Shown here: positions 20,901 through 47,900 of the stretch, one piece after another | How positions within the stretch are numbered: position 1 is the first letter of the stretch | Layout of the letters: every line of letters begins with the position of its first letter | Assembly (NCBI GenBank): GCA_964187785.1 | Contig: OZ076409.1 | Location: forward strand, 13,766,001-13,830,000 | Direction of reading: 5' to 3' | Length of the DNA stretch: 64,000 bases | Source of the DNA: Amphiscolops sp. MND2022 | Taxonomy: Eukaryota | The notes under the pieces: generated by a model | The model's input: only the letters and a program-made list of their open reading frames with translations | Databases searched by the model: none | What the model was told of the DNA's origin: nothing | Program-made: the position numbers and the translations under genes

Positions 20901-23900
20901 TGGGATTTTTCAACATTTATTTTGTCGGAAAATATCAAAAAATTGAAAGGGGACCCTTTGGTGATTTTCTTTCAAAAAAAGTCTTACAGAGCCGAAAATA
21001 CTCTAAGTGAGTACCCTTTGGCCCCGTTGAGTTTCTTAGATGATGTAAAAATACTACTTGGTAAGCTAAGAATTGTAAAAATTGTAAGATTGTAAGAATT
21101 GTAAGAAAAGTGGACCATTCGGAGTGAGATTGTAGGCTGAAAAAATAGTCGGGCTTTTTTTCCTTAAGGGAAAAGGCGCCGACTAAAAATTTAGCCGAAT
21201 AAGGCTTCGGATGAAGAATTATTGGATATTTCGATGCAGTTCAGCCTGGTTGTTTCATCCAGGTCATTCGACGAACACGTTGCTGGTGCACCCAGACCGC
21301 AACCACATCCTGTACGTGCTGGGTAGCACCCTGGTGATCCAGAACATCCGCACCGAGCAGCAGACATTTCTGGCGGGCCACAAGAACTCCATCTCGTGTG
21401 TGGCCGTGTCTGCTTCGGGCAAGTACGTAGCCAGTGGACAGGTCACCCACATGGGCTTCAAAGCTGACGTCATCCTGTGGGACTTCGAGTCGCGCTCCAT
21501 CCTCAAGGTGTTCAGTCTGCACAAGGTCAAGGTCGAGCAGGTCGCCTTCTCCCCCAACGAAAAGTATCTCGTCTCGCTCGGCTCACAGGATGATAGAAGG
21601 TGGGCATCATAGGCATGATATGGTATGCGGAAAACTCGTTGAAAACAACTCGCCGAATACTTGATAACACAGTACGATCACAAAGTTAGCGCTATTATAA
21701 CTGTCTGAGGTTATTTTCTGTTCTTGCGACGAGTTTTCAGCTGGAGAATTTTCGACGAGTTGCTTCTCGACGAGTTTTCCGCATAGTAATTTTGACCAGT
21801 TGTTTTCGACGAGTTTTCCTCGATTGGCGTTATATTATTAAAAGCAACGTAAGGCAAATCTCAAAATCAAATATCTCAAAAACGGCAGTGATTTCTGAAA
21901 AATGGTAGAAGTAAAATTTTCTGAAATTTTCATCTAATTTACAATTATGTTTGGTTGTATGAAAATCATGAAAAACTTCTGGGTTATGATAGGTTCCGTT
22001 TTGGGAGGTAATATTCGGTGAACAACCGGATTAGGTCTTTTATTTTTCTGCTGTCGGGTTCCGTTTTGTACTCTGCCCTTGTTATTTGCTAGAGTGCTTT
22101 GGGTTCCACTCCCCAAATTAAACATTCTTGAAATATTAAATATCCAAATTTCAAAATCAAATATCTCAAAAACGGCAGTGATTTCTAAAAAATGGTAGAA
22201 GTAAAATTTTCTGAAATTTTCATCTAGTTTACAATTATTTTTGGTTGTATGAAAATCATGAAAAACTTCTGGGTTATGATAGGTTCCGTTTTGGGAGGTA
22301 ATATTCGGTAAACAGTCGGATTAGGTCTTTTATTTTTCTGCTGTCGGGTTCCGTTTGGTACTCTGCCCTTGTTATTTGCTAGAGTGCTTCGGATTCCACT
22401 TCCCAAATTAAATATTCTTGGATCATTTGTTCTTTTCCGGTCCAACCGGTTTCCGTTACGTCTCCTTTCGGAATAGGCGTGATGTTGATTTTGTGTTCGC
22501 GTTTTGTGAACTGCCGGAATCCTTCCAACCACTGTCTCCGTGTAAATACCGGATTTCTGTGCGAAGATTTTGCTTCCAATTTCGGTACGGTGATTTTTTC
22601 TGCCTTAGTCTGGATGTTAAGATGTTTGAATCAATTTAAAAACTGGCTGACTGCGCCATGTTGTATTCTAACATCTTCGTTAAGAAAAGACACAATTTGT
22701 AAAATAAGAGTTTCTTTATCAGTAACTGTACTGTAACAAATCTGTATATATAATGAACATAAAATAGAGTTTCTATTCAAGTTTGTTCACTAAAAACTTG
22801 CAAGACCGAAACTTGGAAGACGTTAAGACGGATGAATCGTATAGCACGATGAAAATTGTATAAGTTACGATAGGACATTTTTAGCCAAACTTAAGTCAAA
22901 ATTGAGGTTTCTCTCCTTTTTGGTCTACTTTTGCTCATACTTTAGAACTTCGCAAACTGAGAAATTTTATGTTCAATCGACCCCCTGATTTTACTGAAGC
23001 CCCTGAAATGTTTTGATTCAGCAATCATTCTAAAATCTTAGAAATGTTCTGCTATGCTGTCTAGAACCTTTATTTGTAAATAACTTCCGAAGTATCTGAC
23101 GTGTGTAATTTGTACCATTTTGATATTTTGTTTATTGCATTCCTGATTTTTGGAAAAGGACGACTTGGTATGTTTGACTAAATCTTCTGCATCCAATCAT
23201 CCAATCAAAATTGGGACTTTTGGTCGTAACGAAGGTACCTTAAGGATGGAGATGCGAGAACACTTTGTAGAAACATAGACAAGTACTGATGACTTAGAAC
23301 GGCTTCTCGATCTAGATGAGGTTTGCACTATAAAAAACATTTGGATCAAAGAAAACGTTTCATAAACAAGCAGAGGTTCTACATAAAAATATAAGCAGAC
23401 GTCGCCACAAGTCAAGATTGTTTGGGTCTATGTTGATTAGGGTAAGAAGCTAAGTTTCATCAAAGCAGAGTTTTGACACCGCTAATTAGCGATTTAGCGA
23501 ATCAGCGGCCGCGCATCAATTTTTCAGCGGTTCCATTAGTGATTCAAATTAGCTGGAACTAATCGAATTTCCAAAATCAATTTTCCTAAAAGTATACACG
23601 GGGTTTCAACATTAATTTCGAAAACTTTCATTTTTTACCTTGGTAAAACTGCGCCAACGGGATTGTGTTATAATAACACATAGTGATAATTTAGTGTGGT
23701 TGTATGGGACCTGGAATCGAAGGAAGCCATTTGTGGATCTGCGGCCGCTCTGCCCAGTGCTGGCAATGTTACTTGTCTCAAATACAGCAATACAGATGAC
23801 AATGTCTTCATCACTGGTTGGTTAACCATCTCAACGTGACACTTTATGGACCATGTTTTTTATCCCCGCTGAAGGCGATAAGAAACAAGACGCCTGCTAA

Positions 23901-26900: not shown

Positions 26901-29900
26901 ACAAGGACGAGGTCAAAGACATCTGCTTCCCAAGGTCAGCGTTCGAATACCGTTGCTCTGATTAAAATTCTCGGCACATCAGGAGAACAGTCGTCAATGG
27001 AACGGGTTGTCCAGTGCCTTTTTACTCTATGAAATATTTCATCAGAAAGATCAACTAAATTCTAAAAGCTCATCACTGCATATTTACCCACAAATATGCA
27101 AAATTTATCCTTACTTCATCAACTGTGTCTGTTCAAATTTGTAGCCGGTAGCCCACAACTATTTAAAATTTTAAACTTCATGAAATTTTCAGTAAAAGTT
27201 TTTAATATCAACCCTATTTTGGGTCCGAACACCCCCAAATTCGTATTTTTCAATGCTACATGTTTGGGTGAAATGGCCGCCAAAACTTTGATGAATCTTT
27301 CAAGCAGCTTGATAAAAGCTGTAAAAGTTGGTAATCTAAACGGTGGTCCGAGGCGAAGGTCCGAGACGGATGCCCGTTATTCTCAGCAGTTACAGACTGG
27401 ATGTTTCGTTTCAGCCAAACGAGTGCTCTGTTCCTCACTTGTGCGAAGGAGGATGTGAGGGTTTGGAGCACGGAGACTAACAAGGAGCTGCTGCGGATCC
27501 CTGTGACCAACATGTGCTGCAACGGGGTCTGCATCAAGGAGCCCGGAGACCTCATCATCACAGGTATGTCCGTGTTCAATGAACGTCATAGAAGAAACAC
27601 AAGACGCCCGCTAAGAACCGGGATATTTTCCGCTAAAAATGTAACGCATCATCACGGGTTCGAACCAAACTACCAAACTGCCAACTGCGCCATGGTGACT
27701 AGATTTTACTGAATGGAGTAATAAAGTGGAGATTTGGCAGTTCAGGTAACTGAAATAGTCAAGTATTTAAATTAGTCAAGTTACTAAAATAGTCAAGTGG
27801 AGATGAAGATCGTGGAGATTTGGCAGAATTCGGAAAAAAAACGCAACACAGATTATGATTTTCCTCCCCCATTATATGTGAGCGGAAAATAATAAATTTA
27901 CTTCCCCAATTCAGCAGGGTGGACGCCGAATAAGCAATTCTGCTTTTCTAAGTCGGCGCCCTTTCGAATACTATACCCCGTAGCAAAATATGATACCATA
28001 CTTGCAGCCAATGGTCAAGCAATGGTTGGCTTGAAGCTGTGGTTTCAGAGTGATTTGCACAAGGGTCACAAAAGGTCTGACTGCTCACCGTTGCTCTTTT
28101 TGTTTTTGCTTTTCTCCGCCGTATGCGTTGTTTTGTGTCAATTTTCACACTTCAATGAATTTTTGTCATTGATCATACCACTAAGCTAGGTATAAAGGAC
28201 TTGCTTAAAGCCTAATAATTGTGAGTTGGGAGATATTCGAAATTGAAACTGCTCCAGTACAGGCCGAATGCTCTAACCACTGCCCATGCTCCTACTGATT
28301 TTAGTATCTGAAAAGTAACGCTTTTGCGCCAACAAATCATGTTGGCATATTTTGAATTTTTTGGAAAATGTCCTCCGAATGATCGCCACTATTCAAAATT
28401 TATATAGATTACTTTGTTTCTAATTGTAAAAAACCGAATTTAGATTTTAGAAAAAGGTTTGAGGTACAGAAATTAGTGGTTGAGATACAATCTACCGGAG
28501 ACGTATCTTCTAAAACCAGATTCCTGCATTTGTTATTCCTAGATCTCGACTACTCTGTGAGATTTTTACTTTTAACGTATCTAAAATGCATGAGTTACTC
28601 AATTTTATTATTTAGTTGTATTGATATTTATTTTATACTTATTGAAGGGTGATCGATTACGTAAACAAATAGAAAGATAACTTAGCTTAAAAGGACGACG
28701 CGGCTCGTAGTATTCGTCATCTACTCGTCATCTAATGATAGCGTCGATATAAGCTGCGGACAATTCCGTTCCCAATAAGACCAGTGCTTTTGTAAATATT
28801 CTTTTGTTTCTTGAGGGCCAGCAGCGGCAGAGTACACCCATCTAGATAATTCTTCCCTCCCTTGTTCACGTAAAATATTCCGCCAAGTCGTTCGCCTAAC
28901 TCCAATTACATATTCGTCTAGCGTCCTTTTAATAATAGAATGATCGCGAGTATAAACAGCGTCCCAACCCGAAAGAACTGTCGGTTTAACATTATTCATC
29001 GTAAGTACTAAGTGTGTGCGCAGAGGAGGAATGTAAATTAAGTCGCCGGGACGTTGAAGATGGAAAGTGAAAAATGTAGCTTCTCGCGAGCGAGGACCTC
29101 GTTGAACTAGATTAATAAAACTGGCGACGTCATTATAACAACGCTCAAGTAGGCGAGAAGAGGTATTTGTTGTAGCGGCGCACCAGAGTTTAATACCCGT
29201 ATGTAAATAGGAATACGCAGCGCCGCCACCCACTTCGACGTGTGCTGGACTCAACCACGAACCGTGAATTAAAAGAGCTAGGCTACTAGTAACTTGTTGA
29301 TCTGAAAAGCACGAAGCAGTTAAACAATCTTTAAAGTCCATGTCCGCTTGAATTGATGAAGGAAAATGACGAGTAGCGGCGTTATCAGGACCATACGTAA
29401 TTCCAGTTAAAGGACGACCGGGGAGATTTTCAAAATGTTGCCAAGTAAGACTAGGAAGCTCGGTTAATTCTTTTAGTACGCCACGAGACTCAATATTTAC
29501 ATCAGAAAGTATACAAGGTTCAGTAGGGGAAATTGAAGCGAAATTTACATGTGTTAAAACGGGGAATCGCCGCCACCCCGAATGTATTATATTAAAATCA
29601 GGACAATCACGAAGAGAGAAAAGGACATCCATTTGTTCAACAGCATCAACGCTGCGAGTATTAAAATCAGAACTGTACTGACAATCACGGCTTTTACGCG
29701 TCATTATTATTAAACAAGACAAGTTATATTAACAGGATGGAGATATTAATACAAGACGAGTGAAATCACAACGTATGCAAAATGAATAGAAGAGTGTAGA
29801 TCAAGTCAAAATGCAGTGAATTGAGTAGCGTTCAACTAGCAGCAAGCGAGTGAAAGCGAGAAATGATTTTGGAAAGCCGCCGGCACTATACACACAGCCT

Positions 29901-32900
29901 TACACGGCCGCCACCCGCTATACGCTATACCGGTGGGATTAATACAACTAAAAGTTTGCGACGCGATTTCTCGAAGATGGTGAAAGATAGAAACAAACGG
30001 TTTTCACCATTCAAAACTACATCCAAAGGAGAGCTTAAGTCCGGAAGGGCATTAAAATCGGATGATTACAAGTTGGTGAAAAATGACATTGAAAATAAGT
30101 GCTTTTGGAAAATGACCAAAAATCGACTTTTCGGATTTTTGCAAAACTTAATTATGAAACGTCTAGTGAACCAAAATTATTCGGGATAGTCTTAAATTGA
30201 AGGTATAACAGTTCTTCAGTTACCCTAAAAAGGAAAATTGATAATATTTACCCAGTGTTGAGATCTCGATCAGAAATGGTGTAAAAACAGCGATTTTTGG
30301 CCTAAAAACGGCATTTTCAGCATGTGCGTTGCGATTGCTCAACGAATAACCAATGAAAACGCTCCCCAAGCTCAGCATAGATGTGGCGGGGGTCGGCGGA
30401 GGGAATGGCTATAGAATTAATGCTTAATATGAATTCACCGTAATACCCCGCCAGCGAAGAAAATGGAGACATAGGGAAATTCCCAAAAATCACGATTATG
30501 AAAACGCTAACCCCCCCCCGCACGTTTTGGAAGATATCCGGACCAAACTTACACCCAATACTCCTAAGACCTATGCCCACCTTGTGTTAAAAGGAAATCC
30601 GCCAAAACCTAATAGGAGTTGAGAAAATCGAGGGCAAAGTTGGAGGTCAGGACACAAAAATAGCCAAAATGACACTTTTTGGGAAAATGCAAATAACTTT
30701 TTAACCAACAATGATAGAATGCCCCCCAATAGCTCCAAATCCTCACAATTGAATGGACTAGCGATGTATATAGGCCCCCGGGCTGGTTCCCGAAGCCTCG
30801 ATGAGAAAATTGACCCGAAAGTACCCAAAAATTGACTTGTGGAGACACTGTTTTTGACCACTCCCACTTTGATGCCGTTTTTCTACCCGAAGGAGTCGAA
30901 ATACATAAATGTTGAATAGTAACGAATTTGTAGGCCTTGGATAGACCTTTCAGAAGATATAAACAGTTTTGGCCCCCAGGCACGGAAATACCCATTTTTC
31001 AACAGTTGAAAATGAACCTCAGAATTAGCCATTGTTAAAGGAAATGCATACATGTTTTTTTCGTTCCTTGGAATTATTGAGGGAGCACTCCAATCGATTT
31101 ATTTACAGCGGGACATTCCGCCAGTCATAGGAGGAGTCATTCACACGAGTTGATGACAACATAAGTTAGTAAAAACCGAAGATAAATGATCCGATGTTAA
31201 GACATCTAAGTTGACTCAGAACGTCACACCCCCTTATCTTAGGTGGCTACGAATGAAAACAACTAGACATTCTCAATAAACTCACTTAACCGAGCGTAAA
31301 AATTGTACCGAAAAGGATGATGATTAAATCACTTAGGAAAATTCCCGTAGAAATGAAAAATAACTGACAATAACGAAGTAACTCGGAGTCACGTGACTGA
31401 CCACTCGTCACGAAAGTGACTAAAACACCGAAGAAAACTGAAGTTAAGAAAAGTGGCCATATTTGAGGGCCACAAAGGGATATCAGAGCTAGAGAGCAGT
31501 TGATTACTTTGTCAAGCCAAGAAAATAGAGATTTCGTTCTTTGCAGAATTGGGAAGTGGGACTTCGCCAGATTCTGTCGAGATTGTTTTATTTTCTAACG
31601 CCGTGAGATTCGGGTTAGAGAAAGTTTGAGTTCAGCAGTACTTTAACTGTGGGTTAGCTTAGAGAGACTTTAGCGGAAGTTAATCCGTAGAAACGATACA
31701 GTCCGGGACAGTGAGATAGAGAGAATTCACTTCAAGAACGTTAGAGAAAGTACGGCGAGTTGAGATAATCTTTCATCGATCAATTTGATCACCTTTCAAT
31801 TCTTCCCTCGGGAATACTCATTTATCCTCCGGGATACGTTACCTGCTTTGTATCTAATAAATTATATGTACCCCAAACCATTGGAAATATATTACCATTT
31901 CTGTGGATTTTGTTGTTACCATTCTTATTGAAGTATTAACCCTCTATTATTGATTGATGTTTTAATAAAGCGAAGATTCGTCTTCTTCTAAATATTAGTT
32001 TTCTAACAGCGAGAGCACACGAGACAACCCCTTTGCAAGTCAACAGAATAAAACGGAATTCAGCACTATATGATGCAATAGAACCCCACCACCTCTGAAA
32101 TTATCTTTAGAGTTATAAATTTATGTGAATGCTCAGCCCTATCTTTGTCTCGTGGATAGAGGTACCCTTCGGTTTAATTGAGTAGTAGTGGAGCATTCGA
32201 CAGACTGTTAAAGCTACTTTTCAAAATTCTACATTGGCGCTCCTGGGTGGGCCTATTCCTTTATTTCTGTTGCAATCCCTTTTATCCTCGATTTACACCC
32301 CCTTCTTGCATTCCCTCAACTTTCCTTTGATTTTCCTAATTTCAATCTTCTTATCTTCCATCATCCTTGTTTTTTGGCTGCCCCCACGTCCTTTTCTCAC
32401 CCGCAGAGATGTCAGAAGAAGAAACCCACGACCTCGACTCGCCCCCCGACTCTTCCAAGCCCGCCGAAGGCGACGGCTCAGGTGGTAGTAAACCCCTCTC
32501 TAGTAAGTCAGCGTTTACTTATTCTTGGGATAAATATACGAACGAAAAAGAACGAAAAGAGACAGCGAAACGAAAATTGATGGATTTGATGTTGGAAATG
32601 GAACATGTAAAATTGGAGGCCGGATATGACTCAGACGAATCTTTATCATGTTACCCCGGGAGTAGTGGGAAAACTAAAGCAGTTTACCAAAAATCGCCTA
32701 TTAAACCAGAAAAATTTCCGGGAAAAGATTTTAATCGTTGGGAGCTCTGGGTTAAACACTACAAATCCGTCGTTAAAGCAAATGGTTGGAATGATCGCCA
32801 AGCCATTGCCGCATTGCCTGCTTGTTTAACTTCTTGGGCAGTGGAAGAATTCGAAACAGTTCCGCGCCGTTTTGTTGAAAAATTACCAGGCCAAACAGCA

Positions 32901-35900
32901 CCCCGCTTGGAGTGGTTGCTGGAAGAGCTGAAACCTAAAATGCAACAGTACCGCAGTAAACGGGCAACGCGATCCGAATTTAAGGCGATTCGTCAGCTAG
33001 AAAGTGAAAATCTAAAAGAATATGCCCGACGGGTCCGTCAATTGGGAGAATTAGCTTTTTCTGAAAAAACACTGGCTGAAAGGGACCCTGATCTGCGTGA
33101 TCAATTTTTGGAAGGACTTTTTGATTCTCGAATTCAACAGAAATTGTATGAAGATGAAACAGAGAGGAATTTTTGTGAAATCCTACAAAGAGCACAAGAA
33201 CTTGAACTGATTCAGAAAAATTCGGAAAATAAAAGGCCTCTTCGGGCCGACAAAATTCGATATTGTCAGGAAGATTGCGATCAACTAGACGTAGTTCGAG
33301 CTGGTTATCCCAACTCCAATAACCCCGTAATCGAAGAAAAATTTGCAGCCCTACAGACCTCAATGACTAACGTTGCAAGTCGCTTAGACCGTTTAGATTC
33401 CAATATCTGCAAACAGACTGACCTCTTTGTAAAACAAATACAAGATTTGCCCACCTCAATCTCCACAGCGATTGTGGGAGCATTGGGGAGTGCGCAGAGT
33501 CGCGGTGGTGTACAGTCGCAACAGTGGCAGTCCCAGCCTCTACTTTCTCAGTTAACTCCTAACAGTAGTGCGTCTCAAGTTAGGACAGGTTCGGGCCATG
33601 TAACTATAACTAATCCACCCCCCTCCGTTGCTGAGTGCTTTAGTTGTAAGGAAATAGGACATTTTGCCAGAGACTGCCCGCAGAGGGCTAAACAGGACCA
33701 TTTAAACTGGAAACGGCCGGGTGCGCAGTAGCAGGTTCCACCCGTGCTGGAGACCCCAACCCTCTTAGGTCTGCTACAATTCTTAACAAAGGTTCCACGC
33801 CGTATCACGCACGATCACGCTCCCGCAGCGCCGAAAATCGTTACGGAATTAAAAATAGATCGCGGTACGTAAACCCTAAAACTTGGGAAGAGATGTGCCA
33901 AGAATCAGGACCCGGAGGCTTTTATACTAATATCGAACCCCCAAATGTAAATAGTCCCCTAGTAGAACCCTCCGAAACCGGTTTTAATTCTTTAGAACCA
34001 GGATCCGTAAAAATCCTTCCGAAAGGAGACCCGGAAGAACTTGAAAAATTCAATGGGGTCAAAAATGCGTGCGCAAAATCTAATGAAAAGGAAGCCCCAC
34101 ATGCAATAGCTGCGGGAAAATTTGTCAAAGGTTCAGGCTTGCTTGTTCCCTATCAAGTCGAGGACCAATGCTGTTGGGCCATAGTAGACACCGGTGCGAG
34201 TAACAGCCTAATCAGTAGTACTCTAGCGACCAAGCTAGGAAATGAGATCGTTCCGAACCAAAGTTCGTTGATAGGTCCGGTAGGCAACGTTATGTCCACT
34301 AGAGGACTCATGAAGGCAATGGTGAAAATTGGAGATCTCGTTGCCGAAGACGAATTCGTCGTCGTTGATGGATTGTACCCAGAAGTCCTGATGGGACTAA
34401 AATTCATGATAGAAAGCAAAATTTATCCGAACGTTGTATCGCAAGAGCTCGTGATCAAAAAACCGGACCGTTCTACGGTCGTAGTGCCAATGCAACTCGG
34501 CGGAAGACATGTCCCTTCCCCTGGAAACGAAGCTTATGTGTTCGACACAATACCCGCTCCAGACCATGTCTCTGTGGCCACCGAACTAAACGACGAATTA
34601 GAGAGAGACGTTGACGAAATTCTCAATTTAGCCACGTCGGATCTCGAAAGTGCCGAAATAAAGGAAGAACTGCGAACGCTGATTCGCGAGTATCGTGATG
34701 TGTTTTCCCTACCTAAGGACCCTCTCGGGACAGCGGTAGGAATTGAACACAAAATTGATATAGAGAACTCGCCGCCAATAAAAATTCCTCCGTACAAAAT
34801 CGCTCCACATAAATTAGATGCGATCCGAGCCGAAATTAACGAAATGATAGAAAAGAAAGTAATCGTTCCGAGTAAAAGTCCGTATAGCAGTCCGATTGTT
34901 ATGGTCCCGAAGAAAGACGGCTCTAATCGGATGTGCATCGACTATCGTAAGTTGAACGAAGTGACAGTGAAGGATGCGTATCCGTTGCCGCGGATCGGCC
35001 AGACGATAGACGCGCTACAGGGAGCGGGAGTTTTCTCGTCCCTTGACTTGGCCAGCGGCTATTGGCAAATCCCTGTCGCACCGGAGGATCGTCATAAAAC
35101 AGCGTTTTGTACTCCCGATGGAGGACTCTATGAATGCTTGAAGATGCCGTTCGGCTTGACCAATGCTCCTCCGACGTTCCAAAGATACATGAATGATGTC
35201 TTCAAGGAATTTTTGTATCAGTTCGTGTTAATATTTCTTGACGACGTCTTGACATACAGTAAAACACCGGAAGAACATTTAGCACACCTGAGGAAAGTAT
35301 TTCAAGTATTGAGAATGGCCGGTTTGAAATTGAAGCCAAAAAAATGCAATTTGTTCCAAAACGAAGTTCACTATCTCGGCCACGTCATTAACCAAAAAGG
35401 CATTCAGCCAGACCCGAAAAAGTTAGAAGCCATTCGGACATGGGAACGACCGAAAAATGTGACACAAGTCCGCTCATTCACGGCATTTTGCAATTACTAT
35501 CGGAAATTTGTGAAAAATTTTGCCGAAGTGGCTCGGCCACTCTACTTGCTAACTAGTAAAGGAACGAAATTTACGTGGAACGACGAACACGAAGAAGCTT
35601 TTTGTACACTCAAGGAGCGACTGCTAGCCGGTCCAATACTAGCATTTCCGAATTTTTCGCTCCCTTTTGTGATTGATACGGACGCAAGCGAAACTGCTCT
35701 TGGAGCAGTGCTGTCGCAAGTAGTAGATGGAACCGAGTACCCGATTGCTTTCGAGTCTAGAGTATTGACAAAAACCGAAGTGAATTACGCCACTACTAAA
35801 CGGGAAGCTCTCGGCGTAGTCCAAGCCGTGCAGTGGTTTAGACCGTACATATACGGAACGAAGTGTATAATTAGAACGGATCACGCGAGCCTCCAGTGGC

Positions 35901-38900
35901 TATTCCGGCAGAACGCCGACGGAATGACGTTCCGAATGATCCAAAAGCTGCAAGAGTACGACTACAAAATAGTGCATCGAGCAGGCCAACACCACTGTAA
36001 CGCGGACGGATTAAGTAGGCGGCCAAACGACGTGCCAGAATGGATGCCTGGCGAGGAAGAGGACTTGAGAGGTCCCATTCCCGAATTTGAAAATTTTGAC
36101 ACCGCGCTACTAGATGCGGAACAGGATGTTAAGTCAGCCCGAAGCAAGAAAAACGATGCGAACGAGGACGACGAGTTCGTAAATAGACACGTGCGTTTAC
36201 ATATCCACCGTCCACCGAGGGAAGTCGTCCGTTATAAGACCGGAGAATTTATTAACGCTGGGGACGCGCTAGTCCTCTGTGCATCTGCCGAGATGCGCGT
36301 GCTTAATCTCCCAATGATAACTTTTGTATGCAGGTATTCCCATTTGCGACCGCTGCCCGAGTCATTGAATCAAGTCGGTGGATTTCTTGTGTATAGAGAC
36401 GAAGAGAAGGCGCGATACATCTACGTGTTGATAACTAGAAAAAACGAACACAACGTAGCCACATACGATGATTTGAAAAAGTGTTTAAGGCGAATGTGGT
36501 CGCATGCGAATATTCATGGAGTGTCGGCTTTCGCAATGCCTAGGATAGGCTGTATCGATGACCGTTTGGAATGGATTAACGTGGCAATTTGCTTAGAGAC
36601 AGTGTTTCAAGGAATGTATTGTACGGTAACGGTTTACACTCCCGAACAAGATTTACCGCTATATCCAAACGTAGAACCTCGGACATCGACTAGTCGTTCC
36701 CGAGACCCTGATACGTGCTGCGCCACGGCGATGCCGGAGGAAATGTTATCAACGGGCCAAGTGGGAAGGCGTATATCGTGGACTAAATCCGATAGCGACC
36801 TGGCTAACAAACAACGCTTAGATCCAGCGATGGGAATCCTTTTCCGAGCTATGAAGGATGCAGAATTGTCCCTAAGCGACTCGATGGCTAATCTCGGTCT
36901 TAATCCGATTTCCAAGGAAACAGCGTTGTCATGGAACTGCCCCGAGGCATTGGAACTGTGGAGCAATTGGGAAAGTTTAGCATTAGAAAACAACGTATTG
37001 TATCGAAGGTGGCGTCCCAATAACCGCACACATGAAGTTTGGCAGGCAGTCGTGCCAAAGGAAATGAGAAAAGAGATCCTCTATCAGTTACACGACTCGC
37101 CATTGAGTGGCGGTCACTTCGCTGTAGAAAAAACTTTAGCACGCATTAAGCAACGATTTTGGTGGCCTGCTTTACGTTCGAGCGTAGAGATGCATGTAGC
37201 GAGTTGTCTTCGCTGCGCAGCACGTTCCACAGCCGGGAAGCCGCGGCGAGCGGAACTGCATCCTTTCGAGGTGCAAGCGCCGTTTAAAGTAATGGCGGCC
37301 GACATTCTAGGACCAGTCACGTTAGCAAAGCGCTCGTTGTCCAAGTATATATTAGTAATGTCTGACTTGTACACTAAATACGTTGTGGCGGTTCCGCTGA
37401 AAGACATGACGGCTACTACAGTAGCAACAGCGATAGTAGAGGAGTGGATTACTAAGTTCGGCGCTCCCGACGTGGTTCACACCGACCAAGGGACGAACTT
37501 TAATAGTGAAATGATGCACGACGTCTGTAAAATTTTCATGATTGATAAGACAAGAACGTCCCCGTATCATCCACAAGGCAATGGACAAGTCGAACGATTC
37601 AATCGCGTAATTGCCGACACAATTTCCAAGTATTGTGCAGAAAGACCTCAGGAATGGGACTTATATTTGCCGCATGTTGTTTTTGTGTATAACACTACGG
37701 TGCATAGGACGACAGGAACGACCCCGTTCTCGATGTTGTTCGGCAAAGAAGCGCAGTATCCAATCGATTTGTATTATCCAAAACCGCCTGGCGATCCTCG
37801 TTTAGAATTAAGCGAACCAGCCGCTGAATTGAATGAAAAATTGTACGAGGTGCATGAACATGCGCAAATGACTATGGGGAAAGAACAGCGCCGTCAAAAA
37901 GACTACTATCATCGCAAAGTACACGGCGAACCATTCGAACCAGGAGATCTCGTGTGGCTATTGGAACCGCATAAGGCAAAGTCGCGAAAGTTTTACTTGC
38001 CGTGGCAAGGTCCCTATGAAGTCTTGAGTCGTACCAGCGAAGTCAATTACCGTATCTGTAAGAAAAGTGCTCCCGAAAAATGGCAGAAAGTCCATTTCAA
38101 TCGGTTAAAACCTTTCGTCGGTGATACTCCGCCTCGCAGATCCGAACGCCGAAAGAAACTCGTGGTCTCTAATTACGAAGAATTGCCAAATATTTCAGAG
38201 GAGACTGAAAGTGAAATAGATGGTCTCCCATTCAATGTGTTCAACCCGACAACCGCTGAATCACAAGCCGCTCGTAACAAACCGCACGTGACGTTCGATG
38301 ACGTACCGAAAGTCGCGGAAAAGGCAAGTGACGAAGAATGCCCCGAACCTAATCCCTTATATGTTGACATCCCCGAAGGATCAGTCGCTGATCAAACTCA
38401 TGTTTACGAAGAGATTTCGGAGGGTGGTGACCCCTCTCCGAGAATAGAAGAAGTAGAAGCGAGCGAGAGTAGCTCGGAACCTTGTAGGTCCCGGCAACGT
38501 AAACCGCCCGTTCGTTTCGGAATCGATGACTACACCTCTCGGCGAAAGTAGCGCCGAAGACTCCGAATAGGTCGTTTAGCGAGTATGACCGCTCGGAGTA
38601 CTGCAAACTCGCCCTCGTATTGAAAGCCGATTAGGCTGACTAAAATACGGACGCCAATCGGTACGTGAAGTGATGATCACCTTTTGCGACGCACGCTCGT
38701 GAACGTTCACCACTTCACATTTTTTTGTTTTATACGCCAGTTGCCTTCTTGCCTTGAATACTTCTTAAATAATACAGCAGCTCTCCTCTGTATTCGAAGT
38801 TCTCCACAATACCTCATCAACTAACAAAAACAAAAAAATATATATATATATAGTTCCTCCTCGAATTAGTTAGCTTAGGGTGCTTAAACCCCTTGAAACC

Positions 38901-41900
38901 ACCCCATACTAAAGATGAAAACCGTATTATTCCTTGTGTTATACCTTATTTTTGGTATTTTTGGGCAAAACTCGTTCGATCCTTACGATTTTCAGAGGAA
39001 ACTCGGAAGACCCGGTATCGTTAACGGAACTCATTCAATCTCCGGAGCGGCTTTTACTCCTGAACCTCCGGTGGTGCTTGTCAAGGCAGTAAAAACGCTG
39101 TGGACTTTCCTCCCCTTTCCCCAAGTGCCCCACTTAGACCCGGAGCCGTTGAACCGAATCTTAGAAAATGCGCTAAACCGGTTGACCGACCTAGACCTAC
39201 GGATGTTTTCGCGAGAATGCGCTGACCCTCATTTGTTTAAATATTGGAAACGCTTTTTGCAAGACAACCTAGCGGAAATATTCCAAAGCCATCGAATGTT
39301 CCAGCACGATTGGCTGGCCATGAAAAAATCGCTAACAGTGTTCCTCAATCATACGGTCGATGATGTTCCCACCGGCAAACCTGACCGTTTATCACGATCC
39401 GTTGTTGGCGCGATCGCCGGATCGATGTTAGGGAGTGAGCTATCGCGAATTTTTCTTCGCCCCCTTTTCCAACCTTGGTCCGATTCAGTATCATGTTTTG
39501 TGGACAAGTTAATTCCGTTCGGTTCCACATGTAAGGAAACAGATCGCCGAAAAATCGAAGAGTTGGCCCGGAAGGTCGAGTATTTAGAGGAAACTGTGTT
39601 GTACCTGAAAACAGAGTTGCTTGAAGCGCTCACGGTTCAAATGCCGGTAGATGTCAGTACTAGGGAGTTGGTTGCACTTAAACAGACCGTGGATGAAAAT
39701 GTGCAGATGTTAAACGGAACGATTAACAGTGTAGTAGACGAAATTTACGATTACGTGGAAAAAGCGGAGTGCGTCGCGAGACTAACTCAAGATCGCCATC
39801 GAAACACCTTGATAATGGCGGCAGCGTTCCAAAACCTAACCACTCAGTATCGACGCATAGTAAATGATATTAATCAGAGACGAATTTCGCTAGCAAATAT
39901 GGCATCCATTTTGCAGGACGCTATGTCTTCTTTGGTGCACGGATATCTGCCGATATCTTTAATCCCTCCGTCGACGTTGGTAAAAATACTTGATTCCTTC
40001 GACGTAAACGGGTTAAACGAGGCTATACCCAGGAAATTGATCGCCGCCTATTACTCTTTTGAGGTAGTCAGGGACGCATATATATCGAATGAAGGATTGC
40101 ATCTTTTGTTAGAAATACCCATGTATACAGGACATGGAGTGCACGAGGTATATAGAGCTACCCCCATCCCTCAGCCCATTCCAAACACTGAAAGGGCTAC
40201 GCAGTATCAACTTAGTAAAACACACTTGCTAATGTCGTGGGACAAAACCAATTTCGCGGAGGTTAGTGAACAGGAACTTTCGACGCACTGTTGGGGCTCT
40301 CACCGCCTAAGACTCTGTAAACAACCCTTTTCAACCACGAAATCGCAAAAGACCTCCTGTCTAACGGGTCTGTTCTTTAATCTGCCTGCCACCGTTCTGA
40401 AACTATGTGCTCAAGAGGTCGTGGCACTCCCTCAACACCCTCAGGCGGTATATCTTTATGACTCTACATATCTCCTAACGTCCGCAAAGGGAGATTTCAC
40501 CATTCAGAACATGACTGCTCGAGCAGAAATAAGAGTACCGGGCTGCCAAAGTTGCTTAGTAAGGCCTTCCTGTAATGGGCGACTGCAACTCCCAAATGCC
40601 GGGTTATTCCTCACTCCCGACCCTATTAGTTGTATGGAAACTGACAGTAGTGAAATCGTTCGCATTTTACCCACTCCTTTGCTACGACCCCTGTTTGACA
40701 ATTTAAAATCCCTCGAAGAAGTCATCCCTCCCTCGTTAATGGGAGACGTCCACCAGGAATTACTTTCTCATTTAAAATTGAATTTAGCTGGTTTACCGGA
40801 TCGAGCGGTGACCGAAGAGATGCTGGATGCAATTGCGCAACCCTTCCTAGTGGAGGTGGAAAAGGTCTATTCGACCGTCATCAGAAAGATTTGGAAGGAT
40901 GTTATTCTCCCATGCATTGTTACTTTACTTATGCTTATACTTATAGCTGTTGTGGGGTGGACGGTCAAGTGGGGGAAGATGTATGCTGTGCGACGGTGGA
41001 TGACAGCAGTGCTGCGCGGTGGCGAAGTACAACGCGACACGGCGGCTGCTGTAGACGACGTCCACGAGGAGTCACGTGAGACCACTCCAGTGCCGACGCA
41101 ACAACAGCCGGCAACTTCGAGTGTGCACGAAGCAAAGACAGGTCCACTAAAGGAGTCACGTAAGATGCCAGGGAAGTGAGTTCTCTGTGACGGAAATCGT
41201 AAGCCGAACATAAAACTCCTAACTCAAGCTCCGCCCCCATATTTATTTGCCTCATTTTATATGCAACGATATTTAATGCATTCGCGTGATATTTGTTTCC
41301 TTTCTTTTCTGGTTGAATGCTTTCGCTCGTGCGAGCGCAAAAATTTCTTTTGTGTATCCCCTCCCGACATTATTCATTCGCGCGAGCACTTGTTTTCTTT
41401 CTCCTCCACTTGAACGTCCGAGCGGACAATTAAGTCATAAAATAACGAACGAGTCACATGAGTTAATCCGATTAAAATTGCAGTGCCGAGGAACGAAATA
41501 GCGTCTCGCCATTTAGCTCTAAATTTTTGCAGTATCCAGACGCTCAATCTACAGCTTAGAAAAAAAAAATCATTACATAAACATACATATTATTAAACCT
41601 TGTTTCATCACTTGCACACTAAAAGAAAAAAAAACTATAATGCAACCTATTCGCCCAACACCACTTAGAACAAACCGCCCTATTGCCACCAGCCAGACGC
41701 AGGTCTCTCAAATGTACAACCAACCGCCGCCAGAAGTCCAGCAGGCGTATTTACCCGCCGAAACAGGAGTGCTGCCATTGATTGTTCGAGCTGGAACCCC
41801 AATCGCCACTTATCGCTTGAACAAGATCGAAACACCACAGGCGAACGGAGACCAAATCTACTTTCATGTAGAAAAGTTTTGCACCATGGATGCGCTGTGG

Positions 41901-44900
41901 TACCCCCAGTGGCTGACTCTTAGCCTCTACTGCCAGTTGACGAGAGACCTCTTGCTAGCGGTTGTGCAGGCGGCGTTGGAGCGTCCGGAGCGGGCGCATT
42001 TTATGGCAACTTTTGCCAGGATCCTTGCGCTGCCAGATCAAGGCCCACAGGCAGCAGGCAACCCATTGTCGACGCGGTTCCACTGGAGGGGCCCCATGCA
42101 CGAGACAATGTGGCAGTGGCTCCAACAGGGGGAGAGCCCCTGGGATGTGCCGTTCCAAGTGTATCCTCAACCCCCAGCCCGGCCAAGAGTGGATATGAGA
42201 TTTTATTCAAGGGCGATGCTGCCCTTCGTGACGGAAACCCCGGCTACAACAACTGCCGCCACTTCGACGGGGACAACCACCACCCCTACTACAACGGGCT
42301 CGTCGACGGAGGTAGTCATCGCCGATCAAATGGAGGAGGCGGACTCGGGCAACGTCAGTGACGCCGGCTCCGCTGCCACCCACGTTACCTTCCTGCCCCC
42401 AAAGAAGCGAGCCATGAAAACCCAGCCCCCTACCAGCAGTTAGGCTAAATACTAACTCCATTTTTTGAGTGTGTGTTGCGTTAGATTTTCGTACTGATAA
42501 TTTTCGTACATCATATTATTACACATGGATCCTATTTATTCAATGCGTGTGGAAATATACTAAACATTAATAAAACTTGTGCGTGCTTCTTTCTTTTACA
42601 TAGGAAATAGCTATTTCGTTACTCGGCACAAAAATAAAATTGAAATTACCGCTACTCGGGAGAGTAGCAGTCCAAGTGGGGGGGAATGTGAGATTTTTAC
42701 TTTTAACGTATCTAAAATGCATGAGTTACTCAATTTTATTATTTAGTTGTATTGATATTTATTTTATACTTATTGAAGGGTGATCGATTACGTAAACAAA
42801 TAGAAAGATAACTTAGCTTAAAAGGACGACGCGGCTCGTAGTATTCGTCATCTACTCGTCATCTAATGATAGCGTCGATATAAGCTGCGGACAATTCCGT
42901 TCCCAATAAGACCAGTGCTTTTGTAAATATTCTTTTGTTTCTTGAGGGCCAGCAGCGGCAGAGTACACCCATCTAGATAATTCTTCCCTCCCTTGTTCAC
43001 GTAAAATATTCCGCCAAGTCGTTCGCCTAACTCCAATTACATATTCGTCTAGCGTCCTTTTAATAATAGAATGATCGCGAGTATAAACAGCGTCCCACCC
43101 CGAAAGAACTGTCGGTTTAACCTTATTCATCGTAAGTACTAAGTGTGTGCGCAGAGGAGGAATGTAAATTAAGTCGCCGGGACGTTGAAGATGGAAAGTG
43201 AAAAATGTAGCTTCTCGCGAGCGAGGACCTCGTTGAACTAGATTAATAAAACTGGCGACGTCATTATAACAACGCTCAAGTAGGCGAGAAGAGGTATTTG
43301 TTGTAGCGGCGCACCAGAGTTTAATACCCGTATGTAAATAGGAATACGCAGCGCCGCCACCCACTTCGACGTGTGCTGGACTCAACCACGAACCGTGAAT
43401 TAAAAGAGCTAGGCTACTAGTAACTTGTTGATCTGAAAAGCACGAAGCAGTTAAACAATCTTTAAAGTCCATGTCCGCTTGAATTGATGAAGGAAAATGA
43501 CGAGTAGCGGCGTTATCAGGACCATACGTAATTCCAGTTAAAGGACGACCGGGGAGATTTTCAAAATGTTGCCAAGTAAGACTAGGAAGCTCGGTTAATT
43601 CTTTTAGTACGCCACGAGACTCAATATTTACATCAGAAAGTATACAAGGTTCAGTAGGGGAAATTGAAGCGAAATTTACATGTGTTAAAACGGGGAATCG
43701 CCGCCACCCCGAATGTATTATATTAAAATCAGGACAATCACGAAGAGAGAAAAGGACATCCATTTGTTCAACAGCATCAACGCTGCGAGTATTAAAATCA
43801 GAACTGTACTGACAATCACGGCTTTTACGCGTCATTATTATTAAACAAGACAAGTTATATTAACAGGATGGAGATATTAATACAAGACGAGTGAAATCAC
43901 AACGTATGCAAAATGAATAGAAGAGTGTAGATCAAGTCAAAATGCAGTGAATTGAGTAGCGTTCAACTAGCAGCAAGCGAGTGAAAGCGAGAAATGATTT
44001 TGGAAAGCCGCCGGCACTATACACACAGCCTTACACGGCCGCCACACGCTATACGCTATACCGGTGGGATTAATACAACTAAAAGTTTGCGACGCGATTT
44101 CTCGAAGATGGTGAAAGATAGAAACAAACGGTTTTCACCATTCAAAACTACATCCAAAGGAGAGCTTAAGTCCGGAAGGGCATTAAAATCGGATGATTAC
44201 AAGTTGGTGAAAAATGACATTGAAAATAAGTGCTTTTGGAAAATGACCAAAAATCGACTTTTCGGATTTTTGCAAAACTTAATTATGAAACGTCTAGTGA
44301 ACCAAAATTATTCGGGATAGTCTTAAATTGAAGGTATAACAGTTCTTCAGTTACCCTAAAAAGGAAAATTGATAATATTTACCCAGTGTTGAGATCTCGA
44401 TCAGAAATGGTGTAAAAACAGCGATTTTTGGCCTAAAAACGGCATTTTCAGCATGTGCGTTGCGATTGCTCAACGAATAACCAATGAAAACGCTCCCCAA
44501 GCTCAGCATAGATGTGGCGGTGGTCGGCGGAGGGAATGGCTATAGAATTAACGCTTAATATGAATTCACCGTAATACCCCGCCAGCGAAGAAAATGGAGA
44601 CATAGGGAAATTCCCAAAAATCACGATTATGAAAACGCTAACCCCCCCCCGCACGTTTTGGAAGATATCCGGACCAAACTTACACCCAATACTCCTAAGA
44701 CCTATGCCCACCTTGTGTTAAAAGGAAATCCGCCAAAACCTAATAGGAGTTGAGAAAATCGAGGGCAAAGTTGGAGGTCAGGACACAAAAATAGCCAAAA
44801 TGACACTTTTTGGGAAAATGCAAATAACTTTTTAACCAACAATGATAGAATGCCCCCCAATAGCTCCAAATCCTCACAATTGAATGGACTAGCGATGTAT

Positions 44901-47900
44901 ATAGGCCCCCGGGCTGGTTCCCGAAGCCTCGATGAGAAAATTGACCCGAAAGTACCCAAAAATTGACTTGTGGAGACACTGTTTTTGACCACTCCCACTT
45001 TGATGCCGTTTTTCTACCCGAAGGAGTCGAAATACATAAATGTTGAATAGTAACGAATTTGTAGGCCTTGGATAGACCTTTCAGAAGATATAAACAGTTT
45101 TGGCCCCCAGGCACGGAAATACCCATTTTTCAACAGTTGAAAATGAACCTCAGAATTAGCCATTGTTAAAGGAAATGCATACATGTTTTTTTCGTTCCTT
45201 GGAATTATTGAGGGAGCACTCCAATCGATTTATTTACAGCGGGACATTCCGCCAGTCATAGGAGGAGTCATTCACACGAGTTGATGACAACATAAGTTAG
45301 TAAAAACCGAAGATAAATGATCCGATGTTAAGACATCTAAGTTGACTCAGAACGTCACACCCCCTTATCTTAGGTGGCTACGAATGAAAACAACTAGACA
45401 TTCTCAATAAACTCACTTAACCGAGCGTAAAAATTGTACCGAAAAGGATGATGATTAAATCACTTAGGAAAATTCCCGTAGAAATGAAAAATAACTGACA
45501 ATAACGAAGTAACTCGGAGTCACGTGACTGACCACTCGTCACGAAAGTGACTAAAACACCGAAGAAAACTGAAGTTAAGAAAAGTGGCCATATTTGAGGG
45601 CCACAAAGGGATATCAGAGCTAGAGAGCAGTTGATTACTTTGTCAAGCCAAGAAAATAGAGATTTCGTTCTTTGCAGAATTGGGAAGTGGGACTTCGCCA
45701 GATTCTGTCGAGATTGTTTTATTTTCTAACGCCGTGAGATTCGGGTTAGAGAAAGTTTGAGTTCAGCAGTACTTTAACTGTGGGTTAGCTTAGAGAGACT
45801 TTAGCGGAAGTTAATCCGTAGAAACGATACAGTCCGGGACAGTGAGATAGAGAGAATTCACTTCAAGAACGTTAGAGAAAGTACGGCGAGTTGAGATAAT
45901 CTTTCATCGATCAATTTGATCACCTTTCAATTCTTCCCTCGGGAATACTCATTTATCCTCCGGGATACGTTACCTGCTTTGTATCTAATAAATTATATGT
46001 ACCCCCAAACCATTGGAAATATATTACCATTTCTGTGGATTTTGTTGTTACCATTCTTATTGAAGTATTAACCCTCTATTATTGATTGATGTTTTAATAA
46101 AGCGAAGATTCGTCTTCTTCTAAATATTAGTTTTCTAACAGCGAGAGCACACGAGACAACCCCTTTGCAAGTCAACAGAATAAAACGGAATTCAGCACTA
46201 TATGATGCAATAGAACCCCACCACCTCTGAAATTATCTTTAGAGTTATAAATTTATGTGAATGCTCAGCCCTATCTTTGTCTCGTGGATAGAGGTACCCT
46301 TCGGTTTAATTGAGTAGTAGTGGAGCATTCGACAGACTGTTAAAGCTACTTTTCAAAATTCTACATACTCGTAAATAGTCCTCATATCTACGAAAAACAT
46401 GAGATTTGACATTTGAAAAACGGAAATAGATTGAATGGAACCGAAAAAAACTTTTTGAACATTAAAAAGCTTGCAGGCGAGGTGTGTATATAATATCTTT
46501 GATTGTTCCTGCTCTCCTGTTGTTAGGCTGGAGTGACAACACTGTGAAGGCGTTCAAGCCACAGTCTGGAAAGCTGGCGTGGGAGATCACTCTGGCCCAC
46601 TCGAACGAGGTGACTGCCGTGAACGTGACGTCAGACGGGAACCGCGTCATCACTGGCGGCGGAGAGGGCAACGTCAAAGTGTGGAACATCTCCAACCCCA
46701 AGAAACAGGTTAATAAACTTTAAGCGCATAAAACAAGGCAAAGTTTCTAGGAGTCGGAAAATTTTTCGACTTATGCAATAGTACCTTTTTTCTCCCAACC
46801 TTTCAATAAAAATTTCTCTAAAACTGTGCATACGATTATTATAAAATTTAGCATAGTCATTCTACACCCAAAGGTGCTTCTGCGTGCGCAATCGAATCGT
46901 AAGACTGGGATCTGAGAAACATTGCCAAAATTAGTCTAAAAGAGACCAAATGACAATGAAGTAGGTAATTTGTTTTTCAATATTCAAATCCGTTTCCGAC
47001 TTCTTTTCTGCACTTGCAGCTCTGGTTAAAAGAGAAAGCCATTGGGTTTTAAGGTGTAAAAATAGTTGAATTCCCTCTGAGTATGTGTCACTTGACCGAC
47101 GTACGTTTGAAACATAAAACAGGTGAGTTTAATTTAGCATAATGGTGGATAATGAAATTGCTTTCTTCAACATTCCAATGTTCAAGGGTATTTCAATGTT
47201 GTTTCACGTTTTGAAGGGCAACTTTTTCCCGGTAAGAGTCAATTTATAATTTTTGAAGTTTTGTTTGTGTGCAGCAGCTATCATTTATCATATTAGAATG
47301 TAATTTTCAACGGCTTCCACAAAATCATACCAGCGCTTCATACCAGTTTTAACTTTGATGTGATTCCGTAAAATAATTGGCGAACTTTGCTTCCTTGTGC
47401 ATGGAATTCATCCCTCGTGATCCCTGGTGTGGATTTTGTTTCAAAGCGGTAGCAATGAAGGGTTTGTGTGACTGACCAATTTCATAGAGATGCAGCTCCG
47501 AGAACAAAAAAGTCGATTTGTCTTTGCTCGCCGAATGCAACTCGTCGAAATTAAAGGGCGGAAAACTGGTCGAAAATCAACTCGTCGAATAATTACAGAT
47601 TACCACCACGGATTATCCAGTGCTAATCATGGATAAATTTTCCTTAATTGATGCGTGAAATTTTCAGTTTTACGCATAATATAGCTTTTTTAGTTATATA
47701 ATTGCTTGAAATGTTTCACTTTTACAGTGACAGTCCAGTACTTCATAATAATTTAGAAGCTCATAACACAGTACAATCACAAAATAAGCACTAAATTTGT
47801 CTCAGATTTTTTTCTGTTCTTGCGACGAGTTTTCCGCCGGAGAATTTTCGGTGAGTTGTTTTCGACGAGTTTTCCTGGGTTCGTTTTGAATATAGCATGA

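Follow-up and report, generated by a model that had tools for sequence, protein, structure and literature searches.

Methylation of histones and DNA is the main means by which hosts silence retroelements. The window analysed here, a stretch of 64,000 nucleotides of contig OZ076409.1 of Amphiscolops sp. MND2022, contains a retroelement whose long terminal repeats (LTRs) each carry an antisense open reading frame (ORF) resembling a gene for a JmjC dioxygenase, the enzyme class to which histone demethylases belong. This arrangement raises the questions of whether the ORF is a gene at all, whether its product belongs to the JmjC-fold oxygenases, and what such a protein might do for the element that encodes it.

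Results

An antisense ORF lies within both LTRs of a complete env-bearing retroelement

The element that hosts the JmjC-like ORF is a structurally complete gag-pol-env element of 17.8 kb (Table 1). It displays the features of a Ty3/gypsy (Metaviridae-like) retroelement with env, namely TG...CA LTRs, a target-site duplication, a primer-binding site, a purine run ahead of the 3' LTR (PPT), and a gag gene with protease, reverse transcriptase, RNase H and integrase downstream of it. Aligned over 3,680 nt, the two LTRs differ by 5 mismatches and 1 indel. A language-model search with the insert in pol gave no usable match, and neither the env-like ORF, which by its sequence has a hydrophobic leader at the N terminus and a hydrophobic stretch at the C terminus, nor the fourth sense ORF matches a Pfam family.

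Table 1. Coordinates of the element and of the JmjC-like ORF within the window
Feature	Position	Strand	Remarks
Target-site duplication TACTC	left 28551..28555, right 46366-46370	.	5 bp
5' LTR	28556..32233	+	TG...CA ends, ~3.68 kb
Two AATAAA hexamers, candidate poly(A) signals	28604..28632	-	88 and 111 nt past ORF stop, within LTR
JmjC-like ORF, 5' LTR copy	28721..29704	-	327 aa, uninterrupted
Non-coding LTR block	29939..30040	.	102 nt; 82% identity between lineages A and B; 235-336 nt upstream of ORF ATG
Primer-binding site TGGCGCTCCTGGGTGGG	32235..32251	+	TGG-type, after 5' LTR
gag	32409..33731	+	with zinc knuckle
pol	33893..38551	+	protease, reverse transcriptase, RNase H, ~365-aa insert, integrase
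env-like ORF	38915..41179	+	754 aa; conserved in lineages B, C and E
Fourth sense ORF	41640..42443	+	267 aa; conserved in lineages B and C
3' LTR	42687..46365	+	99.84% identity to 5' LTR
JmjC-like ORF, 3' LTR copy	42852..43835	-	second copy

As the original prediction had proposed, each 3.68-kb LTR holds an intact ORF near its 5' edge (LTR positions 166-1149), antisense to gag-pol and, judging by this position, presumably in U3. The two copies differ at 2 bases, one of them synonymous and the other leading to N238K. The AATAAA signals ascribed to the gene are also there and lie inside the LTR. Because the antisense gene occupies the 5' third of the LTR and the poly(A) hexamers precede the LTR edge, an integrated element comprises two self-contained copies of the gene and a solo LTR comprises one; being built into the LTR of a complete element, the gene is doubled at integration, as had been proposed. 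The conserved non-coding block upstream of the ATG (Table 1) is a candidate promoter region for the antisense ORF.

Besides lineage A, to which the window element belongs, the gene takes up the same antisense position in the LTRs of lineage B (57% amino acid identity) and lineage C (36%). Lineages A and B have collinear LTRs, in both of which the ORF lies 115-165 nt from the LTR 5' end, so that a nested insertion of another element in the LTR can be ruled out. The LTR location that the original prediction had emphasised is, however, not universal: in a distant element (family E; pol 27%, env 25%) the JmjC gene lies antisense between pol and env and not in the LTR.

The encoded protein matches the fold of JmjC oxygenases

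The window protein scores 14.9 bits against Pfam JmjC (PF02373 or PF08007), below the cut-off of 24. Such sub-threshold matches recur in the family, to JmjC in 11 of 17 members and to JmjC_2 in 5 of 17, as well as in 6 of 10 further members, and even the best-scoring member, with 20.6 bits, stays below the same cut-off. Sister family E passes it with 31.5 bits and carries a precomputed PF02373 label, and an hhalign comparison of the family profile with family E gives a probability of 94.6% (E 6.5e-8) with the H, K and H residues aligned. The nearest neighbours in a protein-language-model search are clusters named JmjC (0.97).

Structure prediction points in the same direction. An AF2 model of the ORF protein of moderate confidence (pLDDT 67.6, pTM 0.59; only pLDDT 37.9 when a shallow alignment of 17 sequences was used) was compared with known structures by two independent methods. 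Foldseek returned 27 matches in the PDB at E <= 0.001, with JmjC enzymes in all the rows listed and JMJD6 as the best (5.6e-5), at TM-scores of only ~0.3-0.4. The VIA structure search likewise placed JmjC-class proteins in all of its top 15 rows, led by JMJD5 (Z 9.0), JMJD6 (8.3), TYW5 (8.3) and PHF2 (8.2), Z-scores of 8-9 being close to the level that unmatched models can reach. The model thus matches the double-stranded beta-helix of JmjC enzymes in both searches. No second Pfam domain was found in the 327 residues, making this a JmjC-only, single-domain protein.

Profile searches of PDB sequences with two family alignments returned no JmjC chain and only chance matches (E 0.25-0.56). In a search of representative sequences the best 150 of 391 matches were all fragments of the same family and gave no bridge to named proteins, and a homologue search with the family E protein recovered only that protein and its paralogue. 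Proteins of 51-57% identity occur in other assemblies. Looking up the clusters of the family yielded no names, and the single label is the 'hypothetical protein' of a bacterial MAG. No relative turned up in viral contigs, and metagenome contigs gave one uninformative match of 22 residues. In a viral structure library the top four rows are JmjC/cupin proteins, weak matches (E 1.0e-3 to 2.3e-3, none at E <= 0.001) from Marseillevirus, mimivirus (L613), Gaeavirus and Leptopilina boulardi filamentous virus, which are large DNA viruses and not retroelements. The family is a new, deeply diverged JmjC branch that is missed by standard Pfam annotation and unannotated in public collections.

Catalytic residues are conserved across the family

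The residues expected of an Fe(II)/2-oxoglutarate (2OG) oxygenase had been predicted to be retained, and they are, but every number given for them (H161, E163, K178 and H237) was six too high: the motif residues of the 327-aa protein are H155-V-E157 (H-x-E), K172 and H231, while positions 161, 163, 178 and 237 are occupied by G, A, T and N. The facial triad HxD/E...H aligns with the corresponding residues of a host protein resembling JMJD4 and with those of family E, which has D at the position of E157. A family alignment of 40 sequences, reaching down to 18% identity, shows no variation at H155 and K172, while E157 and H231 are each retained in 90% or more. The candidate 2OG lysine, K172, sits in a G-I-K-L-W motif, and position 152, three residues before the first histidine (H-3), is S or T in all sequences read but P0038, which has A. 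We take a lysine about 15-17 residues past the first histidine and a Ser/Thr at H-3 to play the roles that they have in FIH and JMJD6, the lysine binding 2OG.

With the recurrent sub-threshold Pfam matches, hhalign, the language model, Foldseek, VIA and the conserved triad and lysine in agreement, the JmjC identity put forward in the original prediction is supported, although the Pfam threshold is not reached. Taking fold, residues and the selection described below together, we consider it very probable that the ORF protein is a small, single-domain JmjC-fold Fe(II)/2OG oxygenase, encoded by a functional, selected gene of the element.

The gene is under purifying selection and has a long history within the element clade

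The comparison of copies, a check that the original prediction had invited, shows that purifying selection acts on the coding sequence in the element lineage. The median dN/dS of the ORF frame is 0.129 at a dS of 0.80 (144 of 144 pairs between two sub-lineages), as against 1.1-2.3 in four control frames and 0.25 in the antisense frame that shares the wobble positions. Differences fall on the three codon positions at 14%, 8% and 33%, the third thus differing 2.4 to 4.4 times as often as the first and second. The copies compared were those with an open frame, 34 of the 60 loci examined, which biases the bins of low divergence, but sampling of open frames cannot create a ratio of 0.13 at a dS of 0.8. 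The ORF remains open across lineages in which dS is saturated. As at least 126 matches to it occur within the same genome and the selection is specific to its reading frame, it is not a chance ORF; it is a genuine accessory gene, belonging to a clade of Ty3/gypsy-like retroelements that bear env.

The divergence of the JmjC gene tracks that of gag, pol and env. This and the lack of a close host JmjC gene in the genome rule out a recent capture from the host; the 'captured' domain of the original prediction is accordingly not a recent event but an old component of the element clade.

Two readings of the ORF without a role for its protein in the life of the element have to be weighed against this record. 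LTRs are subject to cis-acting constraint and long U3 regions are able to carry junk, so the ORF might be a passenger without protein function, a captured host fragment or a chance frame lying over conserved cis-regulatory sequence. The constraint, however, follows one reading frame (0.13 versus 1.1-2.3) and spares third codon positions, which brings this reading close to refutation; the frame also stays open where dS is saturated, the distant family E carries the gene outside the LTR, and the reading is left with almost no probability. Host domestication, in which LTR or solo-LTR copies have been recruited and selection acts on the host, could draw on two observations: a solo LTR flanked by the target-site duplication GGGCT retains an open ORF of 330 aa, as had been anticipated for solo LTRs, and in an old element with broken gag and pol the ORFs of both LTRs are still open. 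Of the codon differences between the two LTR copies of that old element, however, 6 are synonymous and 8 non-synonymous, a pattern compatible with neutral drift once the element had inserted, many older copies of the ORF in the genome carry stops, and the strong constraint is seen between element sub-lineages and not within insertions. Since copies drift neutrally once inserted, selection acts on the element and not on the host, and we regard domestication as highly improbable.

Relation to known enzymes and to other element-borne genes

Like the JmjC-only 2OG oxygenases JMJD5, JMJD6, TYW5, FIH and JMJD7, the ORF protein is small and consists essentially of the JmjC double-stranded beta-helix alone, and it shares with them the HxD/E...H triad, a lysine on the fourth strand and the Ser/Thr at H-3. 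No other structures match it better than these enzymes (Z 7.5-9.0; Foldseek E as low as 5.6e-5). It differs from them in an identity of only 10-15%, in falling below the Pfam threshold, and in being encoded by a mobile element rather than a host gene. With the KDM2/KDM7/PHF2/PHF8 demethylases it has the JmjC fold in common (Z 7.0-8.2; Foldseek E ~1e-4), but it is without PHD, CXXC or other reader domains. The KDM2/KDM7 and JMJD6 motifs quoted in the original prediction are both absent from the protein, which reads AHVEVGGG...GIKLW...PPLRTH where the KDM type has HxDF...G.K....IP.GW.H; having neither that motif nor PHD, CXXC or F-box readers, it falls outside the KDM2/KDM7 subfamily. Other repeats of the same genome carry a KDM7-type motif.

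Additional antisense ORFs (aORFs) are known from maize Grande (gene23), plant Retand and Ogre elements and Boty of Botrytis (brtn). The JmjC gene resembles them as an extra gene opposite gag-pol that is kept by selection within the element lineage. Those aORFs are located between pol and the 3' LTR, and their products are small proteins, either DNA-binding or of unknown type, whereas the JmjC gene is internal to the LTR in lineages A, B and C and its product has an oxygenase fold; the family E gene has a classical, internal aORF-like position, but between pol and env. Among retroviruses, MMTV has sag in U3 in sense direction, and the antisense HBZ of HTLV-1 is only promoted from the 3' LTR. 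Together with the HIV-1 LTR antisense gene, as described in an excerpt of PMC1654176, these are cases of coding capacity in or driven from an LTR, including antisense transcription from integrated DNA, and as far as that excerpt goes none of the three encodes an enzyme of the JmjC class.

Chromodomains occur in chromoviruses, and TET/JBP dioxygenases in fungal KDZ DNA transposons. DNA methyltransferases have been described in retrotransposons of dinoflagellates and charophytes (PMC5890265) and a methyl-CpG-binding domain (MBD) in arthropod Copia (PMC6673714), both sources being represented here by excerpts. Our element is like all of these in combining a mobile element with a host-type domain of chromatin or DNA modification, presumably for manipulating silencing, and, as far as the excerpts go, differs in the JmjC family and in having a separate antisense gene instead of a domain fused to a polyprotein. 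The terms JmjC, jumonji and demethylase are absent from PMC5890265 in a term search, and from the accessory-domain review PMC6338049. In the literature searched we found no description of a retroelement-encoded JmjC oxygenase, including an LTR-embedded gene for one.

Discussion

If the gene serves the element, as the selection on it indicates, its expression and site of action can be outlined. The ORF is not translatable from the sense genomic RNA, and for this reason it would be transcribed from a promoter of its own in the integrated DNA. The protein may enter the nucleus, since KR-rich tails end the members read of four deep groups (a cluster of 51% identity from other assemblies, lineage C, P0176 and family E); such a tail is absent in lineages A and B, so that this argument fails for the window's own lineage. 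The protein would act in trans to the benefit of the element. The role we tentatively favour, though at somewhat less than an even chance, is to counter transcriptional silencing, either as a demethylase of histone lysines or as a hydroxylase whose substrate is a chromatin or silencing factor. Among the structural neighbours, JmjC-only hydroxylases (JMJD5, JMJD6, TYW5) tie with PHF2/KDM2, and within a counter-silencing role a hydroxylase of the JmjC-only type is somewhat more likely than a classical histone demethylase.

A histone lysine demethylase in the strict sense, erasing repressive methylation of H3K9, H3K27 or H3K36 from the chromatin of the element itself, would find backing in the fold matches to PHF2, KDM7A, KDM2A and KDM6, in the KR-rich tails of the four groups of relatives, which suggest nuclear localisation, and in the HxE of the triad, as KDM4/5/6 enzymes use HxE and not HxD. 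We nonetheless judge this specific activity unlikely, given a single domain of 327 aa without reader or targeting domain, best structural rows that are JmjC-only hydroxylases with PHF2 on a par, the absence of the KDM2/7 motif from the ORF when other repeats of the genome have it, and an hhalign E of only 0.022 to a KDM7-like copy. Selection by itself is no proof of catalysis either, and JARID2 is a precedent of an inactive JmjC protein, which allows for a protein retained as a binder, perhaps a decoy or adaptor that engages some host factor. Inactive members of the JmjC family usually lack the catalytic residues, however, whereas here H155 and K172 never vary and the other two, E157 and H231, hardly do so down to 18% identity, with the Ser/Thr at H-3 missing in P0038 alone among the sequences read, and an inactive binder is accordingly improbable. 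The full version of the counter-silencing reading, in which a whole clade of env-bearing, retrovirus-like elements has a JmjC oxygenase of its own for counter-silencing and thereby supplies the first retroelement-encoded histone demethylase or chromatin-factor hydroxylase, is in our view rather less likely than not.

The finding means that the element may come equipped with an enzyme that modifies the chromatin or proteins of its host. Should the target be chromatin or a silencing factor, the enzyme would provide a direct, testable case of enzymatic counter-defence by an LTR element, and it would show that an LTR can function as a whole gene cassette, present in duplicate and able to outlast the element in the form of a solo LTR. 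Placement in the LTR would then double the dose with each insertion, solo LTRs would leave expression-competent enzyme genes behind, and the element family as a whole could hold the repressive chromatin of the host in check in trans.

An LTR retroelement with an antisense gene in each LTR

An LTR retroelement of 17.8 kb lies in the window (see the table), bounded by LTRs that are 99.84% identical over 3,680 aligned nucleotides (5 mismatches and 1 indel), run from TG to CA and have the 5-bp duplication TACTC on either side. Downstream of the 5′ LTR comes a primer-binding site of TGG type, and a stretch of purines lies ahead of the 3′ LTR. As the original prediction had claimed, each LTR holds an intact antisense ORF, referred to here as the JmjC ORF, the two copies differing by one synonymous change and N238K; the AATAAA signals proposed for it were also found, as two hexamers on its own strand, downstream of the stop and within the LTR edge. 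The antisense LTR gene is self-contained. Its predicted catalytic motif is present as H155, E157, K172 and H231, although the earlier residue numbers were each six too high.

Positions of features in the window
Feature	Window position	Description
LTR retroelement	28556-46365	
JmjC ORF, 327 aa	28721-29704	opposite strand, 5′ LTR (LTR positions 166-1149); uninterrupted
Conserved block 1, 102 nt	29939-30040	LTR 1384-1485; 82% between lineages A and B; 235-336 nt upstream of the ATG
Conserved block 2	30501-30538	LTR 1946-1983; 92% between lineages A and B; run of 8-9 C
gag	internal, between LTRs	zinc knuckle
pol	internal, between LTRs	protease, RT, RNase H, integrase
pol insert, ~365 aa	35960-37050	pol residues ~690-1053, between RNase H and integrase zinc domain
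env-like ORF, 754 aa	38915-41179	no Pfam family
ORF4, 267 aa	41640-42443	further sense ORF; no Pfam family
JmjC ORF, second copy, 327 aa	42852-43835	opposite strand, 3′ LTR; uninterrupted
Tandem duplication	12024-14250	1.1-kb units, 99.1% identity; not related to the element
Tandem duplication	21855-22420	276-nt units, 95.7% identity; not related to the element

The pol insert is without an assigned family: its residues ~828-894 show only weak Macro-domain similarity (E 0.013-0.12, below the cut-off), and a language-model search with the insert gave no usable match.

Relationship to JmjC proteins

Taken by itself, sequence is a weak argument for JmjC identity. Sub-threshold Pfam matches among 17 family members were to JmjC_2 in 11 and to JmjC in 5, six of 10 further members gave sub-threshold JmjC-type matches and the other four none, and family profiles run against PDB sequences found no JmjC chain. 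On the Pfam JmjC profile the window protein reaches 14.9 bits, short of the cut-off of 24; family E, a sister family in the same genome, passes at 31.5 bits (precomputed label PF02373), and hhalign links the two families with 94.6% probability (E 6.5e-8), the His, Lys and His columns being in register. In the ESM Atlas, the nearest clusters carry JmjC names (score 0.97).

An AlphaFold model of moderate confidence (pLDDT 67.6, pTM 0.59) was obtained from a 40-sequence alignment reaching down to 18% identity, in which H155 and K172 never vary and at least 90% of sequences retain E157 and H231. Foldseek returned 27 PDB matches at E ≤ 0.001, those listed all being JmjC enzymes (JMJD6, KDM7A, PHF2, PHF8, TYW5, KDM2A, JMJD5, KDM6), and a Foldseek-independent structure search was headed by JMJD5 (Z 9.0), JMJD6 (8.3), TYW5 (8.3) and PHF2 (8.2) with its best 15 rows all JmjC-class, in agreement with the predicted fold; the TM-scores of 0.3-0.4 and the Z values are modest, and a Z near 8 can arise by chance. 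The argument rests on the agreement of independent methods together with the conserved motif, which support the modelled window protein as a deeply diverged JmjC-fold protein outside formal Pfam membership.

Copies, lineages and selection

The 1.07-Gb genome contains at least 126 matches to the JmjC ORF. Eight copies at 99-100% identity make up four LTR pairs with a spacing of about 14.13 kb; older copies at 85-92% identity mostly contain stops. Beside this lineage A, to which the window element belongs, lineage B comprises many copies at about 57% identity, mostly paired 11-15 kb apart (by hand count of the listed matches, 38 full-length without and 12 full-length with stops), and lineage C one pair at 38%. 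An open frame of 325-340 aa was present in 34 of the 60 loci examined, giving 33 distinct sequences. In the one lineage B and one lineage C element examined, both LTRs hold the ORF antisense and close to their 5′ edge, and the genes run gag-pol-env-ORF4, as in the window. Protein identities between A and B (gag 53%, pol 68%, env 73%, ORF4 61%, JmjC 56.5%) and between A and C (44%, 43.5%, 47%, 31% and 36%, respectively) indicate that the JmjC gene diverged together with its element.

The dN/dS check suggested in the original prediction was carried out between two lineage B sub-lineages (144 of 144 pairs). The ORF frame gave a median of 0.129 at dS 0.80, not near 1, compared with 1.1-2.3 for four other frames over the same columns and 0.25 for the antisense frame with shared wobble positions; differences by codon position were 14%, 8% and 33%. 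These values support purifying selection on the JmjC ORF. The old lineage C element (G000:C13:22153177-22169838, L024-L026), with gag and pol in pieces, has 3.1-kb LTRs that are 99.0% identical, each with an open 339-aa JmjC ORF; the two ORFs show 6 synonymous and 8 non-synonymous codon differences, as neutral drift since insertion would produce, which places the constraint on the replicating element lineage.

The 225-aa "hypothetical protein" P0035 (NCBI MEO1764958.1), from a 1.9-kb contig of a cyanobacterial MAG, is 54% identical to the family. It is a fragment of the eukaryotic JmjC retroelement family, and its presence in the MAG is probably eukaryotic contamination.

Other placements of JmjC genes

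In family E, a 294-aa antisense ORF separates pol (RT-RH-IN) from an env-like ORF (G000:C12:55299000-55310000; L075, L074, L076), and its host element is only distantly related to that of the window (pol 27%, env 25% identical). The second copy (G000:C7:12011650-12013700, L073) differs by 45 synonymous-only and 46 non-synonymous codon differences in 250. An antisense JmjC gene in so distant an element makes the association between JmjC and this clade of elements an old one, with the LTR position a derived or alternative placement. The predicted survival of the gene in solo LTRs was borne out by one solo LTR of the B2 sub-lineage (G000:C3:70089101-70092537, within L027) with the target-site duplication GGGCT and an open 330-aa JmjC ORF, around which gag, pol and env are absent from a 10-kb stretch; a second candidate is broken by an assembly gap.

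Two other multi-copy JmjC families, of KDM7/PHF8 type, occur genome-wide, for example at C1:6292791-6293099 (L065) and C1:26460262-26460573 (L066), matching at least 35 places with about 40 bits and at least 11 with 29.4 bits. A repeat that also contains a BRCT-domain ORF and tandem units of ~300 nt houses one of the copies, and no gag or pol resembling the window's lies within 6 kb of it. Within this genome, JmjC genes that are mobile or repeated therefore appear to have more than one origin.

Precedents and possible function

Full-text searches of the literature found no retroelement-encoded JmjC gene; subscription journals and Repbase entries lay outside this scope, and a prior description may exist. 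Known analogues include antisense additional ORFs of plant and fungal LTR elements, element-borne DNMT, MBD, chromodomain and TET/JBP modules, and JmjC proteins of giant DNA viruses. Retroviral genes that lie within an LTR or are expressed from one, such as MMTV sag and HTLV HBZ, are further analogues, as is the proposed antisense gene of the HIV-1 LTR (PMC1654176). A term search for JmjC, jumonji and demethylase had no match in a study of DNMT-carrying retrotransposons (PMC5890265), nor in a review on the accessory domains that retrotransposon polyproteins contain (PMC6338049).

When lineages A and B are compared, alignment of the LTRs is confined to the ORF, the LTR 3′ end and two short non-coding blocks, which are both candidates for promoters or enhancers of one strand or both. 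A promoter within the LTR, for which block 1 is a candidate, would drive transcription of the JmjC ORF from integrated copies. Its product is probably nuclear, as suggested by KR-rich C-terminal tails in the members read of four deep groups (a 51%-identical cluster from other assemblies, lineage C, the relative P0176 and family E); the tail is absent from lineages A and B. The protein would act in trans, to the benefit of the element.

The window protein is JmjC-only, its structural matches are tied between hydroxylases and PHF2, and the KDM2/7 motif present in other repeats of the same genome is missing from it. The counter-silencing role put forward in the original prediction is possible, if a little short of an even chance, and within it hydroxylase-type activity would be somewhat more likely than that of a classical histone demethylase. 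A histone-demethylase or anti-silencing function of the JmjC protein is an attractive hypothesis.
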